From: an uncultured bacterium
GTDB lineage: Bacteria > Cyanobacteriota > Vampirovibrionia > Gastranaerophilales > Gastranaerophilaceae
Direction: 5' to 3'
Assembly: GCA_903868125.1 (NCBI GenBank)
Contig: CAIPUE010000023.1
Span: forward strand, 19,977-83,976
Length of the DNA stretch: 64,000 bases
How positions within the stretch are numbered: position 1 is the stretch's first letter; each line of letters begins with the position of its first letter. The notes below the pieces were generated by a model. That model worked only from the letters and a program-made list of their open reading frames with translations, had not been told where the DNA came from and ran no database searches. Shown piece after piece: positions 1,972 to 55,604 of this stretch. Position numbers and translations under genes: made by a program.

Positions 1972-4900
1972 ATGAAAAATTTTTTTGAAGAATATCACGA
2001 ACTTTTATACAACTGCAATAAACCTTATCAATATGTTGGCGGTGAGTTTTTGTCACGCAATAAAAAATTTGAAGCCGCAAAAGTTACCTTTGCATTCGCT
2101 TTTCCCGACAAGTACGAAATTGGGATAAGTAATCTTGGGCAAAGGGTTCTATATGGAATTGTTAACGATCATCCGGATTTTATGGCGGACAGAATTTATG
2201 CTCCAGAGGCGGATTTTAAAAAGAATTTAATAGAAACAGGAAAAGAGTTTTACTCGCTTGAAAGCAAAACTCCGTTGAAAAACTTTGACTTAATAGGGTT
2301 TTCGCTTCAATATGAAATGTCTTATCCGACTGTACTTGCGATGATGGAGATGGCAAAATTTCCTCATAAATCGAGCGAACGAGGTGAAAACGACCCGATA
2401 ATTCTTGCGGGAGGACCTTGTGTTTATAACCCTTTACCACTTGCAGATTTTATTGATGCTTTTTTAATCGGCGATGGTGAGGAGGTTGTTTTAGAGGTTT
2501 GCGAAGCGATAAAATTTGCCAAGGATAAGGGGCTTTCACGTGAAGAAAAAATCCGAAAAATATCGCAAATAGAGGGCGTTTTCGTACCCGCAATTTCAAC
2601 AAACAAAGTTAAAAAACGACTTGTGCAAATCGGGTACGAAAACGCCCTCAAAGCTTATCCAATACCTTTTTGCTCCTCTGTGCATGACAGGGCGATTGTG
2701 GAAATTCGACGCGGTTGTGGAAGAATGTGCAGGTTTTGTCAGCCGGGGCACGTGAATTTGCCGGTGAGAGAAAGAAGCGCAGAAGATATAATAAAAATTG
2801 CAAAAGAATTAGTCAAAAACACAGGATATGACGAATATTCATTGCTTTCTTTGTCGTCAAACGAATATTCAAATATTAAAGAAGTGATTAAAGAACTTGC
2901 CATTGATTTTGACGATAAAAGAGTTTCCGTTTCACTTCCGAGCCAAAGAATTGACGGTTTTAACCTTGAGCTGGCTAATTTGGTTCAAAGTGTTCGAAAA
3001 TCCACCATGACACTTGCTCCTGAGGCAGGAAGTCAAAGGCTTAGAGATGTTATTAGAAAAAATATAACGGAATCACAGATTTTAGATGCCGTTTTAACAT
3101 TATACGAAAACGGCTGGTCGAAGATTAAATTTTATTTTATCATCGGGCTTCCGACAGAAACGCTCGCCGATGTTGATGAGATGGTCAATTTACTTGAAGA
3201 AATCAAGTATCGGACAAAAACTCTCAAACGCGAAAAAGGGTTAAAACACGGGTTGGATTTGACATGTACACTTTCGATTTTTGTGCCGAAGCCGTTTACG
3301 CCTTTTCAATGGTTTGGGCAGTCGGATTTAAGTGAAGTGACGGAAAGAATTCATTATTTAAAAGATAAGACGAAGCATATAAAAGGGCTTAAAATAAATT
3401 ACCATGAGCAATCAGTATCACAACTCGAGGCGGTTTTGACCCGTGGGGGCACTGAACTTTGTAATTATATCGAAAAACTTTGGCAAAAGGGATGTTATTT
3501 GGATGCTTGGGGGGAACATTTTGACAGGCATGTTTGGCGAGAAACTGCCGAGGAATTGGGAATTTCACTGAAGGACTTGGCGGAAAAAGAGTATTCAACG
3601 GAAGAAAATTTGCCATGGGATTTTATTGATATCGGGGTTGAGAAAGATTGGCTGATTTCTGAATATAAAAGCGCACTTGGAAATATAACAAAACCGTCCT
3701 GCGAAACAGGGTGCGTACAATGCGGCGTTTGCTCGAATTTTAATACGCACAAGGTCTTGGATAAGCCGTATTTGAATAAAAAGGAAAAAGAGAAAAGGGA
3801 AACTGAGGTAGAAAGCCGTTTACCGTTTACCGTTAACCGTTTACCCAACAAATATCGTATTAAATTAACAAAAACAGGCATTCTGCGTTATTTTTCTCAT
3901 CTTGATTGGCAAAATACTTTTCATAAAGCAATAGCTAGAAGCGGTCTGAACGTTGTGTTTTCGCAAGGATTTAATCCCTCGATGAAGGTATCTTTGGGCG
4001 TTGCTCTTCCGCTTTTTGTCGAGAGCGAATGTGAGCTTGTGGATATAGAAATTTATAACGAGCCGATAATCTCCTTGACGGGGAAAGAGCTAGGAGAGTT
4101 CGAAAACGAAGCGGATTTGCGAAAAGCCGCGATTGCCTATTACAAAAAAAATATTCAGGGGATAACAGTTGAACATCCTGTTTTAGGTGGAATTCAGTTT
4201 ACAGGTAGCGGGCTTGCTAAAACTAAAGATGCCAGTGCGGATATTTGTAAATTGCAAATAATATCAAAATTGCTTGAATTGGTTCAAACTGGACTATACG
4301 AAGGTTCATTACCACCGTACAAATCAAATAGTAAATTTAAAAAATATCATTATTTAACAAATAAAATTTTTATTGGTGGGGAAATATTTAAACATAGAAT
4401 AACGATAGGCGAAGATACAAATGGGAATAAATATTACAATATAAATGACATAAAATATAGCCCATCGACATTGACCGGCGTACAACCACCGGGTACCGAT
4501 GAGCTAAAAAAAGGTTCAGAAACTTTTACCAGGTTACAAAACTTGGATGCTAATGAACCTAATAATATTATACAACATTCGAACCCTAATTTCAACCCCT
4601 CCGACGAAAGCGAAATAACCTCGCTCCAACTAAAGTTGGAAAAAATTCTTCCTGAGGGTTGCGAAATAATAAGTATTGTAAAACTCGATAAATCTGCCAA
4701 AGCTATTGATAATACAGTGCAATGGGCTGAATACCAAATTAAGCTTTTTGATGAGACTATTCAAAATTTTGAAAGTTTGCGCTATAATATGGAAAGAGTT
4801 TTGTCTTCTGAAGAAATTTTACTGACGAAGAAAAACAAAAAAGGATTTTTAAAAAGCATAAACATAAAACCCGCCATCAAATCATATAGATTTGGAGGTA

Positions 4901-49908: not shown

Positions 49909-50604
49909 ATGAATAAAATTTTGGTTATAGATGATGAACAAGCCATAAACGAATTGATTAAAATAAACCTTGAGCTGGTCGGCTACAGGGTAATTCAGGC
50001 ATTAGACGGCATAAAAGGCTTTGCTCTGGCGAAGCAGGAGCTGCCTAACGCAATTATTTTGGATGTTATGATGCCCGAGGTTGACGGTTATACGGTTGCA
50101 CAAAGAATCAGGCAAAACCCTTTGACAAAAAATATTCCTATCCTGATGTTGACCGCACTTTCTCAACTCAAGGACAAGGTTAGAGGTTTCGATATAGGTA
50201 TAGATGATTATCTGGTCAAACCGTTTGAGATGGAGGAATTAAAGGTTCGGATAAGGGCTATTTTGAAACGTTCAAATCAAATCCCCGAATCTGTTGCGAT
50301 TAAAGAACTTCTTAGCGTAAAAGAGATTACGCTTTTGCCTGAAACTTATTCGGTAAAAATCAACGAAAGTATGGCAAAATTAACTCCGATTGAGTTTGAG
50401 ATTTTTAACTTGCTGTTCCAAAATCACGGTAATATGGTTTCATCCGCAAAATTATTAAACGATATTTGGGGATATTCACCTGACGATGAAATCGAAACAA
50501 TTCGGGTTCATATCAGACATTTAAGAACAAAAATCGAAAAAATCTCTAACGGCAAAAAATATATCCAAACGATTTATGGCGGGGGATATAAACTTGAACT
50601 TTAA
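49909..50604 (+). CDS. OmpR-family response regulator (receiver + winged helix)
   Basis: 231 aa. ILVIDDE, ILDVMMPEVDG, DDYLVKPF. The C-terminal IRVHIRHLRTKIE..YIQTIYGGGYKL is a winged-helix signature. Confidence 0.85.
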   Translation: MNKILVIDDEQAINELIKINLELVGYRVIQALDGIKGFALAKQELPNAIILDVMMPEVDGYTVAQRIRQNPLTKNIPILMLTALSQLKDKVRGFDIGIDDYLVKPFEMEELKVRIRAILKRSNQIPESVAIKELLSVKEITLLPETYSVKINESMAKLTPIEFEIFNLLFQNHGNMVSSAKLLNDIWGYSPDDEIETIRVHIRHLRTKIEKISNGKKYIQTIYGGGYKLEL

Positions 50605-50810
50605 AATGTGGATAGCGAATATAATACGGGGAAGTTCAAAACTCTCAAATATTGGTTTGCTAACCCAACGGCAATAAATCAATTATGCTTTTATCGCAAC
50701 TCGGTATTAGTGTTTAACCATGGTTCTTGCGAAAAGTCCATGAAATTTTGATATAGCTGGATAGAATACATCACAAAAGGCTAGAAGTCAGTAAAATAGA
50801 TGCCCTAGTC

Positions 50811-50947
50811 CTCCTCGCCCCTTGAGGGAAATTCTTGGGGAGGGGTGAAACACGCATGCTTCCACGCGAAACCCCTCACCCGACTTTCTAACACTCGCGG
50901 GCTTCCGCTCGTGCGGAAAGTCGCCCTCTCCCTCAAGGGGAGAGGGG
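50811..50947 (+). other. GC-rich nested-palindrome element upstream of kup (candidate structured RNA or REP/MITE core)
   Basis: Three nested stems: CCCCTTGAGGGA (50818-50829) / TCCCTCAAGGGG (50929-50940); GAGGGGT (50840-50846) / ACCCCTC (50871-50877); CGACTTTC (50881-50888) / GAAAGTCG (50916-50923). Confidence 0.7.
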
Positions 50948-51085
50948 TAGAACGCTTGTTGTGTCTGGCTTTTAGCTTTGTATATAGGCTGACATTTAAT
51001 CATATTAGTATTTCACGCATTTTTCGGAAGAACCGTTAACCATTTAATGCTTGATTTTTAGTATTTATATTATACAGTTGTAATC

Positions 51086-52897
51086 ATGCACGAACAAAAA
51101 ACATCAATAAAAAATATAATACAGGCAATGGGATTGGTATTTGGAGATATCGGAACAAGCCCGATTTATACCTTTACCGTAATATTTTTGACTACAAAAG
51201 TAACGGCAACAAACGTTGTCGGAGTTTTGTCTTTAATCATCTGGACACTTTTGTTGATTGTAACCGCACAGTACACTTGGCTTGCAATGAGTTTAAGCAA
51301 AAGAGGCGAAGGTGGAACAATCGTACTCAATGAGATTTTAAGAAAACTTTTAAAAAATTCTCGTCCGATAGTTTTTTTCTCGTTTCTTACATATTTGGGG
51401 ATTTCACTTTTAATCGGCGATAGCGTTATAACCCCTTCGATAAGTATCTTGTCCGCGGTTGAAGGGTTGAGATTAATTCATCCTTTACATAATATTCCAC
51501 AAGCTTTGATTTTGGTGATTACGTTAGTAATTGCCATTTCTCTTTTTGCAATCCAAAAGAAAGGGATAGAAAAAATAACTAAGGTTTTTGGTGTAATTAT
51601 GCTTATATGGTTTTTGGCGTTAGGAACTTCGGGGCTTGCTTCAATTTGGCACCACCCGTTAGTTTTGGGAGCATTTAACCCTCTAAACGGTATCAAATTC
51701 GTTGTACACAACGGTTTGGGCGGGTTTTTTGTGTTATCTGAGGTGTTCCTATGTGCAACAGGTGCCGAAGCCCTTTATGCTGATATGGGGCATCTGGGCA
51801 GAAAGCCTATTACCGGTGCTTGGGGGTTTGTACTTTGCGTATTAATACTTAATTATTTAGGACAGGGTTCATTTTTAATCAGACATCCGGAAGAAACTAA
51901 TATTCTTTTTTCAATGGTTTTGTCTCAGGCTAAGATTTTATATATTCCGTTTTTATTGGTAAGTATTCTGGCAACAATTATAGCTTCTCAGGCGATGATT
52001 AGCGGGCTTTTTGCAGTTATTTATCAGGGGATAAACACAAGAATTTTACCTTTGTTTAAGGTATCCTACACTTCCGAAAAAATTAATTCTCAGATTTATA
52101 TTGCAACAGCAAATTGGTTTTTGTTGTTTTTCGTAGTTTTAGTTATCTTAATATTTAAAGAATCTTCTAAACTTGCGTCTGCCTACGGGTTGGCGGTTAG
52201 CGGGACTTTTACGATTACAGCGGTTATGATGGGAACGATTTTCTTTTTAAGAAAAAGATACTTTCATCTGTTGATAACAATCGGGTTATTTTTCGTAGAC
52301 TTTTCTTACCTAATGGCTACCTGCACAAAAATCCCGACGGGTGCTTACTGGTCGATTATAATTGCATCAATACCTCTTTCGTTGATAATCTTGTACCTCA
52401 AAGGGCAGGAAGCTATGTATAAATCGATTGTATTGATGGATAAGGATACATTTTTAGAGCAGTATAAAAAAACTTATTCAAGTGTTAATAAAATCGAAGG
52501 TAAAGCGTTGTTTTTTGCGAGAGGGATTGAAAAAGTTCCGCCTTATATTGTTCAAACTCTTTTTACTAATAATATTATTTATACAGAAAATATTTTTATA
52601 CAAATAAATAAAGCGAGTGAGGCGTTTGGCTTGCACTATGATTTGACTCAGGTGGCAGAAGGTTTGAACATACTGAAAATTGATGTGGGTTATATGGAAG
52701 TTTTTAGGCTGGAAAAAGTATTGAAAGCTTTGGATATAGAAGAAAAGGCTATCTTTTACGGGGTAGAAGATATTGAAACGAATAATTTCTTCTGGCATAT
52801 TTTCTCTATAATCAAAAAAGTTACCCCAACGTTTGTAAGTTTTTACAAGTTGCCGGTTCACAAAATCCATGGTGTAATTACGCAGATAACTTTATAA
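51086..52897 (+). CDS. kup: KUP/HAK/KT potassium uptake protein
   Basis: 603 aa. LVFGDIGTSPIY signature, about 12 TM helices plus a cytoplasmic C-terminal domain. Confidence 0.9.
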   Translation: MHEQKTSIKNIIQAMGLVFGDIGTSPIYTFTVIFLTTKVTATNVVGVLSLIIWTLLLIVTAQYTWLAMSLSKRGEGGTIVLNEILRKLLKNSRPIVFFSFLTYLGISLLIGDSVITPSISILSAVEGLRLIHPLHNIPQALILVITLVIAISLFAIQKKGIEKITKVFGVIMLIWFLALGTSGLASIWHHPLVLGAFNPLNGIKFVVHNGLGGFFVLSEVFLCATGAEALYADMGHLGRKPITGAWGFVLCVLILNYLGQGSFLIRHPEETNILFSMVLSQAKILYIPFLLVSILATIIASQAMISGLFAVIYQGINTRILPLFKVSYTSEKINSQIYIATANWFLLFFVVLVILIFKESSKLASAYGLAVSGTFTITAVMMGTIFFLRKRYFHLLITIGLFFVDFSYLMATCTKIPTGAYWSIIIASIPLSLIILYLKGQEAMYKSIVLMDKDTFLEQYKKTYSSVNKIEGKALFFARGIEKVPPYIVQTLFTNNIIYTENIFIQINKASEAFGLHYDLTQVAEGLNILKIDVGYMEVFRLEKVLKALDIEEKAIFYGVEDIETNNFFWHIFSIIKKVTPTFVSFYKLPVHKIHGVITQITL

Positions 52898-53303: not shown

Positions 53304-55604
53304 TTACAAAATATCTATAGGGTCAACATCAATCGTAAGCTTAATATCTTTTGGCATGGTAATTTGGTTTATAAATTTTGAGATGAACGCATGTCCTTTT
53401 TCTTCCAGCTTATTTTTAATAATAATTTGAAAACGATGCATGCCCTTAATTTTTTCAATGACGCAAGTCGATGGACCAAGCACGATTAGTCGTTCTGAAA
53501 TTCCCTGTTTATCTATAATTGTGTTCAGTCTCATTGTTATTTCCTGCGCGGATTTTTCTGCTCTAAAATTATTTTCTGAGCTTAAAATTATCCTAACAAC
53601 CTGACTGAAAGGCGGATAATCAAATTCTTCTCTCGATTGGATTTCTGTTTGATAAAAATCGCCGTAATTTTGTTGTTTCGCGCTTTCAAGCGCATAAAAA
53701 TCGGGGTTGTAAGTCTGAAAAATAACGCTGCCAGAAAATTCTCCTCTGCCCGAGCGTCCCGCAACTTGGGTTAAAAGTTGAAACCCTCTTTCTGACGCTC
53801 TAAAATCAGGCAAATTAAAACTGGCGTCCGCCGCAATTACCCCGACAAGTGTAACATTAGGGTTATCAAGCCCTTTTGCAATCATCTGGGTTCCAATTAG
53901 AATATCAATTTCACCCTGCTGAAATTTGTCTAAAAGGTCAATGTGAGCATTCTTTTTGGTCAAAATATCGCTGTCAATTCTTTCAATCTTTACATCTTTG
54001 AACAATTCTTTTATCAAAATTTCGATTTTTTGTGTACCTGCACCCGAATTTCTTAACGCATCACTTCCGCATTTTAAACAAGTTTCGGGAAACGATTTTG
54101 TTCTGTTGCAATAGTGGCATTTCAAAGTTGCACTTTCACTGTGCCAAATCATAGGGATAGAGCAGTCTTCACATTCGATTACATCGCCACATGCCTGACA
54201 TTGAGTGTATGTCGAAAATCCCCTGCGATTTATCAGCAAAATCACCTGCTGACCTTTTTCCAATGTTTCTTCAATAGCTTTTTGCAGTTGAACAGAAATT
54301 ATCCCGCGATAAGCCTGTTTTGAGTTATTTTGCATATTTATTACTGAAGTTTTTGCCACAGGAACATTATTAAATCTGTTTGGAAGTTCAAACAAATTTT
54401 TTGAATTAACAGCTCGGTAATAAGTTGCGACATCAGGAGTTGCACTTCCTAAAAGAAGCGGACAATTGTGGAATTGAGCCAATTTTTGCGCAACGGTTCT
54501 TGCATCGTATCTTGGGTTCGGATTGGTCTGCTTGTAGGCGTTTTCGTGTTCTTCATCAATGATTATAAGTCCGATATTTTTTAACGGTGCAAACACTGCA
54601 GAGCGGGCTCCTGCAAGAATTTTTATCTCATCTTTGTATAATTTTTGCCAAACATCATATCTTTCGCCCTCTGAAATACTGCTGTGCCAAATTGCAACGT
54701 CTTTTGTGCCGAATTTCTTTGCCAAACGTTTTGTAAGCTGGGATGCCAAAGCGATTTCAGGTGCCAAAAATAAAATATTTTTACCCGACTTAATTGTGTC
54801 ATCAATCAGCTTAAAATAGACTTCGGTCTTACCCGACGCGGTTACACCGTGTAAGAGTGAGGGGTGAGAGGTGAGAGGTGAGGAGTTTTGCGGGTCTTGT
54901 TCATCTTTTTCCTTTTTCCTTTTTACTTTTTCCCTTATTTCCAAATAAATTTTTTCTTGATCGCCGGAAAGCTCGTACAAATCTTCCTTTTCAATTATAT
55001 GTAAGTTTTCAAGCGGGTTTCTGTAAATTTCTTCGTCTAAAACCCTTACACAACCTAACGCTTCAAGCTTATTAATCGTCGCTCGCGTTGTCTTTGCCTG
55101 TTTCTCAAACTCGATTAGGGGCATCTTACCCTGTTTTTGGAGAATTTCGAGGATTTCAAGCTGACGTTTCTTTGCGCCCTCAAAAGACAAAAATTCCACC
55201 GATTTTTCGGTTTTTGCGTTTTTATCAATTAATTTTAAAGGAATTGCCATGTTTAAAACTGTCACAAAATCTGAACAATAGTAATTCGCCACCCATTCGA
55301 GCAATTTCAAATATTCAAGTGTAAAAAGCGGAGTTTCGTCTAAGATTTTATTTATTTTTTTCGCTTTGATTTCAGCCGCCAAATAATTAGAAAACCCTAC
55401 CACAAAAGCATTAATCAGCCCTTGTCTTCCGAATGGGACTGAAATTGCCTGACCTATTTGGATTTTCGCTTTCATTTCATCAGGGATTATGTAGCTGAAA
55501 GTTTTTACGCCAAGCCCTTTTATGTTAACAAGAGCAAGGGCGTATTTATTCAACACGCCCGAAGTCTGTTCTATTTGCTGATTTTCGTTAAGCTTCTTGC
55601 TCAT
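53304..55604 (-). CDS. priA: primosomal protein N' (replication restart helicase PriA)
   Basis: Walker A GVTASGKTEVY, DEEH box, Cys-rich insertion (CQACGDVIECEDC..CHYCN..CLKCGS). The start is taken as ATG 55604; the TTG at 55607 is the alternative. Confidence 0.9.
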   Translation of the reverse strand: MSKKLNENQQIEQTSGVLNKYALALVNIKGLGVKTFSYIIPDEMKAKIQIGQAISVPFGRQGLINAFVVGFSNYLAAEIKAKKINKILDETPLFTLEYLKLLEWVANYYCSDFVTVLNMAIPLKLIDKNAKTEKSVEFLSFEGAKKRQLEILEILQKQGKMPLIEFEKQAKTTRATINKLEALGCVRVLDEEIYRNPLENLHIIEKEDLYELSGDQEKIYLEIREKVKRKKEKDEQDPQNSSPLTSHPSLLHGVTASGKTEVYFKLIDDTIKSGKNILFLAPEIALASQLTKRLAKKFGTKDVAIWHSSISEGERYDVWQKLYKDEIKILAGARSAVFAPLKNIGLIIIDEEHENAYKQTNPNPRYDARTVAQKLAQFHNCPLLLGSATPDVATYYRAVNSKNLFELPNRFNNVPVAKTSVINMQNNSKQAYRGIISVQLQKAIEETLEKGQQVILLINRRGFSTYTQCQACGDVIECEDCSIPMIWHSESATLKCHYCNRTKSFPETCLKCGSDALRNSGAGTQKIEILIKELFKDVKIERIDSDILTKKNAHIDLLDKFQQGEIDILIGTQMIAKGLDNPNVTLVGVIAADASFNLPDFRASERGFQLLTQVAGRSGRGEFSGSVIFQTYNPDFYALESAKQQNYGDFYQTEIQSREEFDYPPFSQVVRIILSSENNFRAEKSAQEITMRLNTIIDKQGISERLIVLGPSTCVIEKIKGMHRFQIIIKNKLEEKGHAFISKFINQITMPKDIKLTIDVDPIDIL
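54851..54884 (+). repeat. GGTGAGR heptamer array inside priA (translated on the minus strand as SSPLTSHPSLL)
   Basis: GTAAGAGTGAGGGGTGAGAGGTGAGAGGTGAGGA. Confidence 0.9.

Follow-up and report, generated by a model that had tools for sequence, protein, structure and literature searches.

A miniature inverted-repeat element upstream of kup in a Gastranaerophilaceae genome carries a palindromic module resembling the arms of DUF559 endonuclease cassettes

Miniature inverted-repeat transposable elements (MITEs), of which Nezha of cyanobacteria and Correia/NEMIS of Neisseria are examples, are the closest described counterparts of an element that lies just upstream of the K+ transporter gene kup in a 64,000-nt stretch of contig CAIPUE010000023.1 (assembly GCA_903868125.1, Gastranaerophilaceae; the whole stretch is hereafter the window, and its 1.89-Mb genome, with a mean GC content of 0.349, is G000). 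Like them, this element has terminal inverted repeats (TIRs), a target duplication fixed at 9 bp and several copies; the outer 313-bp element lacks coding capacity and is present or absent between close relatives. It differs from them in its core, a separate and far more widespread palindromic module, hereafter U. An earlier note on the window had described this core as a GC-rich three-stem island and had weighed a riboswitch for kup against a mobile element. The mobile element stands, as a MITE that has TIRs of 25 bp and is flanked by a 9-bp target-site duplication (TSD), and the riboswitch does not. Our best explanation, with a probability of roughly 0.78, is a recent MITE insertion carrying a doublet of the U palindrome, itself the arm of cassettes that encode a DUF559 endonuclease. 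The same figure, as part of this explanation, applies to the GC-rich island being selfish repeat DNA rather than regulatory RNA.

Other described systems resemble the module rather than the MITE. Vsr-like (EDxHD, I-Bth0305I) homing endonuclease genes and inteins have reportedly been described (Dassa et al. 2009; Taylor et al. 2011). The DUF559 cassettes share with these a small nuclease gene of restriction-enzyme/Vsr-like fold that acts as a selfish insert, in-frame positions in essential genes (priA, uvrD-like), and filled or empty sites among close genomes. They differ in having no intron and no Hint/intein domain, in their long palindromic arms that are translated as linkers, and in an 'empty' allele that is a solo copy of one U hairpin, hairpin C. 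Repetitive extragenic palindrome (REP) doublets with their transposases (REPIN-RAYT; Bertels & Rainey 2011, PMC3116915) and the related mosaic elements (BIMEs) are alike in being short GC-rich palindromes that form inverted doublets, disperse between genes and flank a single- or low-copy nuclease gene. However, the enzyme associated with U is a DUF559 endonuclease of the PD-(D/E)XK fold instead of a Y1 HUH transposase, the GTAG head is missing from U, and genuine GTAG-REP/RAYT pairs exist separately in G000. Rickettsia palindromic elements and small dispersed repeats of cyanobacteria, as far as PMC3116915 presents the work of Elhai et al. 2008 that it cites, are likewise tiny nesting palindromes tolerated in frame, whereas U belongs to another sequence family and host clade and has a physically linked candidate enzyme. 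Set beside these systems, the window locus itself is ordinary selfish DNA with no new riboswitch before kup, and the U-DUF559 system varies the theme of nuclease plus palindrome in a new way.

The MITE and its target site in the window are composed as follows.

50722-51034, plus strand: 313-bp non-autonomous MITE of sub-family 1, recognised by TIRs, TSD, further copies and an empty site.
50722-50746, plus strand: left TIR, GGTTCTTGCGAAAAGTCCATGAAAT, 25 bp, imperfect, located by pattern search.
51010-51034, minus strand: right TIR, reading GGTTCTTCCGAAAAATGCGTGAAAT as the reverse complement, located by sequence comparison and pattern search.
50713-50721: left TSD copy, TTTAACCAT, 9 bp, a single copy in the sister species.
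51035-51043: right TSD copy, GTTAACCAT, identical to the left copy at 8 of 9 positions.

Assignment to the MITEs is based on the TIRs, the fixed-length TSD and a precise presence/absence polymorphism. The imperfect inverted repeat that had been taken to bound the insert is present, with GGTTCTTGCGAAAA at 50722-50735 and TTTTCGGAAGAACC at 51021-51034, and no open reading frame (ORF) within 50722-51034 matched Pfam. In the sister species (locus L031), Kup is 98% identical and the flanks of the locus are 95-98% identical. The spacer of this species lacks window positions 50722-51034 and one copy of the 9-bp duplication, and its empty site reads ...GTGTTTAACCAT followed by TTAATGC... / GTGTTTAACCAT followed by TTAATGCTTG... 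The site before kup is likewise empty in contig C146 of G027, a genome of the same genus. We consider that the MITE entered, by transposition, the spacer that separates kup from the response regulator gene after the lineage had split from the sister species. It lies 51 bp before the kup ATG, the target duplication keeps those 51 bp, and any effect on kup expression would be incidental.

Further copies of sub-family 1 are found in G000 at C5:11597-11797 and C18:57301-57551, with perfect 9-bp duplications (ATGTTAATG and TAATTGAAA, respectively), and contigs C40, C6 and C23 end in partial MITE copies. An RNase P RNA gene (225 bits; L002:995-1343, on G000:C18) is located about 70 nt upstream of the C18 copy. 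A second sub-family has the left TIR in common and a different interior, which includes a GTAG-type REP hairpin; its copies also show 9-bp duplications (GCATAGAGT, ATTTCATGT and AAGATAAAA). The TIR pattern, allowed up to 3 mismatches, was sought in 61 relatives; G000 has 15 such MITE termini, G027 has 18 and G023 has 11, and there are none in 58 other relatives.

The termini in G023 point to a possible source of the transposase. All 11 are identical, carry the MITE TIR and run into an ORF (MDINKILKLRQFKAFNLDVENEKVLIYGE...; for example L076, C99:35516-35642), and all of the contigs stop about 125 nt into the element. Since the termini are identical, lead into an ORF and sit on contigs that all end about 125 nt in, they probably derive from a high-copy autonomous element that was left out of the metagenome bin. 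The N-terminal 29 residues of the ORF are too short for classification. The interior was not recovered when the terminus was sought in three genomes and then in 401 genomes of the family; of two scans of metagenome contigs, one returned no terminus and the other a single sub-family 2 MITE. A BLAST match in G076 was discarded as a chance match within a coding sequence. The MITE may have been moved in trans by the transposase of this element, which is seen only as the 11 identical G023 termini.

The GC-rich island lies at about 50811-50947 in the 481-nt spacer between the response regulator gene and kup. Its GC content is 0.58-0.62 in 100-nt windows over 50800-50949, as against 0.26-0.35 in the flanks, and the description of the island as GC-rich is borne out. 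All of the stems claimed for it were found: the outer stem (CCCCTTGAGGGA, 50818-50829, with TCCCTCAAGGGG, 50929-50940) and two internal hairpins (GAGGGGT, 50840-50846, with ACCCCTC, 50871-50877, and CGACTTTC, 50881-50888, with GAAAGTCG, 50916-50923). The proposed three-way junction is also the predicted minimum-energy fold of 50800-50960, at -76.9 kcal/mol versus -55.3 +/- 4.4 for 200 dinucleotide shuffles (z = -4.88), none of which folds as stably. These stems are explained by the anatomy of U, a palindromic module of about 75 nt that consists, in order, of a terminal motif (ACCCCTCACCC), a covarying hairpin B of about 2 x 18 nt, and hairpin C (CCCTCTCCC-NCAA-GGGGNGAGGG). Copies were detected with a covariance model, R1, built from 28 U copies without an ORF. 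Within the MITE, the following parts can be distinguished.

50810-50846, minus strand: truncated inverted U, with a degenerate hairpin C, a hairpin B remnant and GGGGAGGGGT; compare the complete doublets at C58, C17 and L042.
50847-50870, plus strand: 24-nt spacer with a small hairpin (CGC..GCG), from the fold and from homologous spacers in the C17, C48, C58 and L042 doublets.
50871-50947, plus strand: complete U, matching model R1 at 86.9 bits (E = 5e-16).
50807-50918: 112-nt block absent from the C5 copy of the MITE, from the alignment; direct repeat AGTC at 50807-50810 and 50919-50922.

In the complete U, the terminal motif ACCCCTCACCC occupies 50871-50881, hairpin B 50882-50922 and hairpin C 50924-50947; the truncated copy gives a weak minus-strand match to R1 (50817-50846, 13.7 bits). 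The island is thus a head-to-head doublet of truncated inverted U, 24-nt spacer and U, at the centre of the MITE. The 'closing stem' is the pairing of the two hairpin-C copies and a by-product of the inverted doublet, and the internal hairpins are the facing terminal motifs (GGGGAGGGGT and ACCCCTC) and hairpin B. The C5 copy of the MITE, both arms of which are almost identical to those of the window copy, lacks the 112 nt, the C18 copy lacks 61 nt (window 50810-50870), and a G027 copy holds a complete head-to-head U pair. The MITE thus carries the island as a passenger that varies between near-identical copies, by 112 nt in C5 and 61 nt in C18, and the window U would move only in this way.

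The island was also considered as a cis-acting structured RNA in the 5' untranslated region of kup, that is, a riboswitch or leader responding, for example, to cyclic di-AMP (c-di-AMP) or K+. It is on the same strand as kup, some 140 nt ahead of the ATG, its fold is very stable (z = -4.9), and two weak promoter-like sites in the left arm of the MITE (50740-50767 and 50770-50797) could drive transcription through it. However, a search of 50300-51400 (cmscan, Rfam 15, permissive filters) returned no match to the ydaO/kimA family RF00379 even at E <= 10, and nothing at the locus reached a gathering score; the one notable match below threshold, to whalefall-1, is on the opposite strand. Rfam searches of 13 and 19 other copies gave no match at the gathering score either. 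The ten kup loci of relatives that were searched have no Rfam family at the gathering score and no U copy directly upstream of kup, the same site is empty in the sister species and in G027, about 20 copies of U occur in G000 in unrelated contexts, and the C5 copy of the MITE lacks the island. The c-di-AMP riboswitch suggested in the earlier note is therefore unsupported, its family being unmatched and the element being multi-copy and not conserved before kup. A conserved kup riboswitch is already refuted, which leaves an accidental effect on kup mRNA as the residual option, and we give a cis-acting RNA of any kind hardly any credence.

Model R1 matched 20 copies of U in G000. Across the phylum, 77 of the 401 genomes sampled contain U, and 76 of these belong to the Gastranaerophilaceae (20 genera); many reach 12 copies, the most that were scored, and copies are often found at contig ends. 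The multiplicity in unrelated contexts, which had been named as the mark of a repeat, is therefore evident, and the orientations are unrelated as well. The flanks of U are unrelated between genera and between loci, and within one genome U is embedded in differing longer repeats. In G000 it is found in at least three other MITE-like carriers (the C58, C59/C49 and C2 types), and the orthologous sites in G027 lack each of them. One C2 element, of 126 bp (G000:C2:82245-82375; TIR GGTACCTCTAAAAAC...), carries a U without hairpin B, sits exactly at a start codon and duplicates TCATG; its site in G027 is empty. Smaller elements nest within U itself: mini-element X (about 60 nt) in hairpin C and mini-element Y (43 nt) between hairpins C and B, where sister genomes differ (G000:C13:~4157-4193 and G000:C15:143913-144026 versus L064 and L062 of G027). 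No target duplication was found for U, X or Y.

Copies of U are also found within genes. The translation signature that had been noted for the island (SPLEGEG-like) appears in frame within genes of relatives, and a 37-nt U without hairpin B (LPPPPRERTEVRG) is in frame in a FolC-like Mur ligase gene (G000:C14:5444-5480), at the same site in G027. Another short (37-nt) U without hairpin B is in frame in an aspartase/fumarase-type lyase of a relative.

The covariation analysis proposed for the stems was carried out on 100 copies of U (77 distinct), with 500 shuffles and slid controls, and revealed covariation that is almost purely Watson-Crick. Pairing holds in 98.4% of pair cells, and compensatory changes occur in 12 of the 18 pairs. 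Cells with double changes number 152, versus 34.7 +/- 4.7 in shuffles, none of which reaches 152, and 7-16 in the slid controls. G·U occupies 3 of 1343 pair cells. Since almost exclusively Watson-Crick covariation is expected of a DNA palindrome and unusual for a functional RNA, this result points to U being a DNA palindrome rather than an RNA. The alternative, in which U would be a gene for a small non-coding RNA or would act at the RNA level, with its copies expressed, for instance as stabilisers or terminators, can draw on the strong covariation of hairpin B, on GCAA in about half of the hairpin C loops, and on whalefall-1 matches of seven copies that are below threshold, consistent and on one relative strand, to a family rated an RNA by Weinberg et al. 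(PMC2864571). It is at odds with the near absence of G·U pairs, with in-frame translated copies within genes, with copies that are inverted arms of protein-coding cassettes, and with hairpins that are followed by no T-tract. Both orientations relative to genes occur, and since there is no consistent orientation of U to neighbouring genes, a leader or terminator role gains no support. We regard the RNA alternative as quite improbable.

The whalefall-1 family (RF01762), interpreted as a small RNA by Weinberg et al. 2010 (PMC2864571), bears a resemblance to U that may reflect a shared kind of DNA repeat. The window U matches it on the minus strand at 19.5 bits and copies of six relatives at 17.8-23.8 bits; all seven matches extend across the entire model, and the matching strand is each time the one with the order hairpin C, hairpin B, GGGTGAGGGG. 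With E values of 0.04-6 over 4227 families, the matches are for one given family far beyond chance. Since U scores at most 23.8 bits, below the gathering score of 37, it is not a member of RF01762 by the Rfam criterion. The two have in common, in the same order and on the same strand, a hairpin whose stem is CUCUCC/GGAGAG, another hairpin that covaries, and a GGGUGAGG tail. They differ in that U has a hairpin B of about double the length, and the seed pairs of whalefall-1 stand tail-to-tail whereas the window doublet is head-to-head. In the RF01762 seed (PMC2864571 supplement), 12 of the 16 sequences form six inverted pairs, on the same contigs and 33-57 nt apart. Since this is a doublet architecture, whalefall-1 may be an ORF-less DNA repeat of REPIN-like kind and not a small RNA gene.

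The inverted doublets of U also raise the question of REP/REPIN-type mobilisation by a RAYT, a Y1 HUH transposase. Besides the doublets, which resemble REPINs, the presence of two RAYT-like genes in G000 and of nested mini-insertions without target duplication favours such a mechanism. On the other hand, U has no GTAG head, the GTAG hairpins that flank both G000 RAYTs differ from it in sequence, nine RAYT loci have no U copy within 1.5 kb, and G443, G221 and G441 hold at least 12 U copies each and no Y1_Tnp. Mobilisation of U by RAYT was ruled out on the grounds that GTAG hairpins, not U, flank RAYTs and that these three U-rich genomes lack Y1_Tnp; a REPIN-type origin of U is accordingly very unlikely. 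The two RAYT-like Y1 genes, at G000:C29:57105-57446 and G000:C15:146433-146801, have GTAG-headed REP hairpins of their own (GTAGGTCGGGCTTTCCAGCCCGAC and GTAGGGTGCGGATTTAACCGCACC, respectively), and the REP type of the C29 gene is also found inside MITE sub-family 2.

A different nuclease is linked to U. PF04480 (DUF559) genes number one to seven in each of nine out of ten U-bearing genomes, with three in G027, and at 12 loci in eight genomes two inverted U copies flank the DUF559 ORF on either side, within about 30-100 nt. Model R1, itself built from ORF-less copies, gave paired inverted matches of 22-60 bits abutting these 12 genes. The order is U, gene, inverted U at nine loci and inverted U, gene, U at three; the latter is the arrangement of the window doublet and includes both intact G027 copies. 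Stand-alone cassettes measure about 520 bp and consist of perfect arms of about 70 nt, about 20 nt with TATAAT, and an ORF of 112-125 aa. The DUF559 protein matches PDB 3HRL, an 'endonuclease-like protein', at E = 1e-27, and its motifs ...YIVDF...IELDGGQH... are retained in every copy. We take U to be the inverted arm of mini-cassettes of about 0.5 kb in Gastranaerophilaceae, in which the DUF559 (Vsr / PD-(D/E)XK-fold) endonuclease is the sole protein.

Cassettes also lie in frame within host genes. In PriA of three genera they separate the 3' DNA-binding part from Walker A; others are in the N-terminal domain of a UvrD-type helicase and in an IspE-like GHMP kinase, and the arms provide linker peptides (PSPQPSPTRGEG ... 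SPSPLVGEGRVRG). At L155 (G058:C3:93779-95140), two DUF559 copies and an IspE-like kinase share one open frame, with one copy upstream of the kinase and one inside; the second alone has U arms at E <= 0.01. The priA gene of the window (minus strand, 54851-54884) has a repeat-derived in-frame insert, SSPLTSHPSLL, directly before Walker A. Its DNA contains CCTCTCA CCTCTCA CCCCTCAC, and it lies in the same PriA region as the U-flanked cassettes of the three genera.

Two loci carry a full cassette (411 and 453 nt) in G027 and a solo hairpin C in G000 (C32:68020-68041, inside a uvrD-like gene, and C15:~106924-106960). The U arms around DUF559 genes could instead be a coincidence, with these genes or any incoming DNA tending to land in or near abundant repeats and some unrelated process spreading U. 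This would agree with the targeting of REPs by insertion sequences (Tobes & Pareja 2006, to the extent that PMC3116915 cites it) and with the 20 U copies that G000 retains without DUF559. Nevertheless, symmetric inverted arms immediately abut the ORF at 12 loci in eight genomes, and in L180 and L166 these arms match perfectly across 70 nt. Different host genes hold this architecture in frame, and the filled and solo-C allele pairs are precise. We consider a coincidence unlikely. A homing-like cycle can be envisaged, in which the DUF559 nuclease would cut solo hairpin C or doublet sites and the cassette would be copied in by repair. U, solo hairpin C and the DUF559 gene together might represent a class of selfish element not described so far, namely a 'palindrome-homing' cassette with an endonuclease of the PD-(D/E)XK fold, a proposal that we make tentatively and at clearly less than even odds. 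Among the papers searched, those that mention DUF559 describe no mobile cassettes.

The window doublet has a 24-nt spacer and no DUF559 ORF between its arms. Since there is also no PF04480 match in its genome, the doublet is an ORF-less relative of the cassette and not a cassette. Judging from its arms, it may be either an ORF-less derivative of a DUF559 cassette or an unfilled target for one, and doublets of this kind would travel as MITE cargo. The U subtype of the window is present in at least 17 copies at 97% identity in G027, which has DUF559, versus three to four in G000, which does not.

Several points weigh against the explanation as a whole, that is, a recent MITE insertion with a doublet of the cassette arm. 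G000 contains no PF04480 match in a search of its whole genome, and the link of the window copy to DUF559 thus rests on arm homology, not on a local gene. Both arms were detected at E <= 0.01 at 12 of about 25 full-length DUF559 loci, and the filled/solo-C polymorphisms can be read as insertion or as loss. The strong covariation of U and the GNRA-type GCAA loop in about half of its hairpin C copies would suit an RNA as well. Finally, the autonomous partner of the MITE was not recovered from the 61 relatives, the 401 family genomes or the metagenome contigs.

The neighbours of the element are as follows, and both genes had been named correctly in the earlier note, as judged by Pfam.

49909-50604, plus strand: OmpR-type response regulator gene, the upstream neighbour (Pfam Response_reg and Trans_reg_C).
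51086-52897, plus strand: kup, K+ uptake transporter (Pfam K_trans, E = 1e-144, and K_trans_C), with the MITE ending 51 bp upstream.

The strong hairpin of the MITE island is located between these two genes. A second dispersed repeat (GGTTTGCTAACCCAACGGCAATAAATCAATTATGC...) adjoins the MITE on its left, at 50650-50707, and recurs on at least eight other contigs; a 34-nt part of it (50650-50683) is missing from the sister species.

For the family, the locus suggests that GC-rich islands in the AT-rich intergenic DNA of Gastranaerophilaceae genomes are mostly mobile palindromes. It also leads to a repeat that occurs throughout this family of gut Melainabacteria (at least 76 genomes, 20 genera) and is tied to a small nuclease gene, DUF559, with clean filled/empty allele pairs and with cassettes tolerated in frame in replication and repair genes, and it suggests that the Rfam 'RNA' family whalefall-1 is a DNA repeat. 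If the palindrome-homing proposal is true, the cassette would copy itself into dispersed solo-palindrome sites, including in-frame sites in priA, uvrD-like and ispE-like genes. ORF-less doublets, including the Rfam 'whalefall-1 RNA', would then be non-autonomous relics of the cassette, and the widespread orphan family DUF559 would gain a function.

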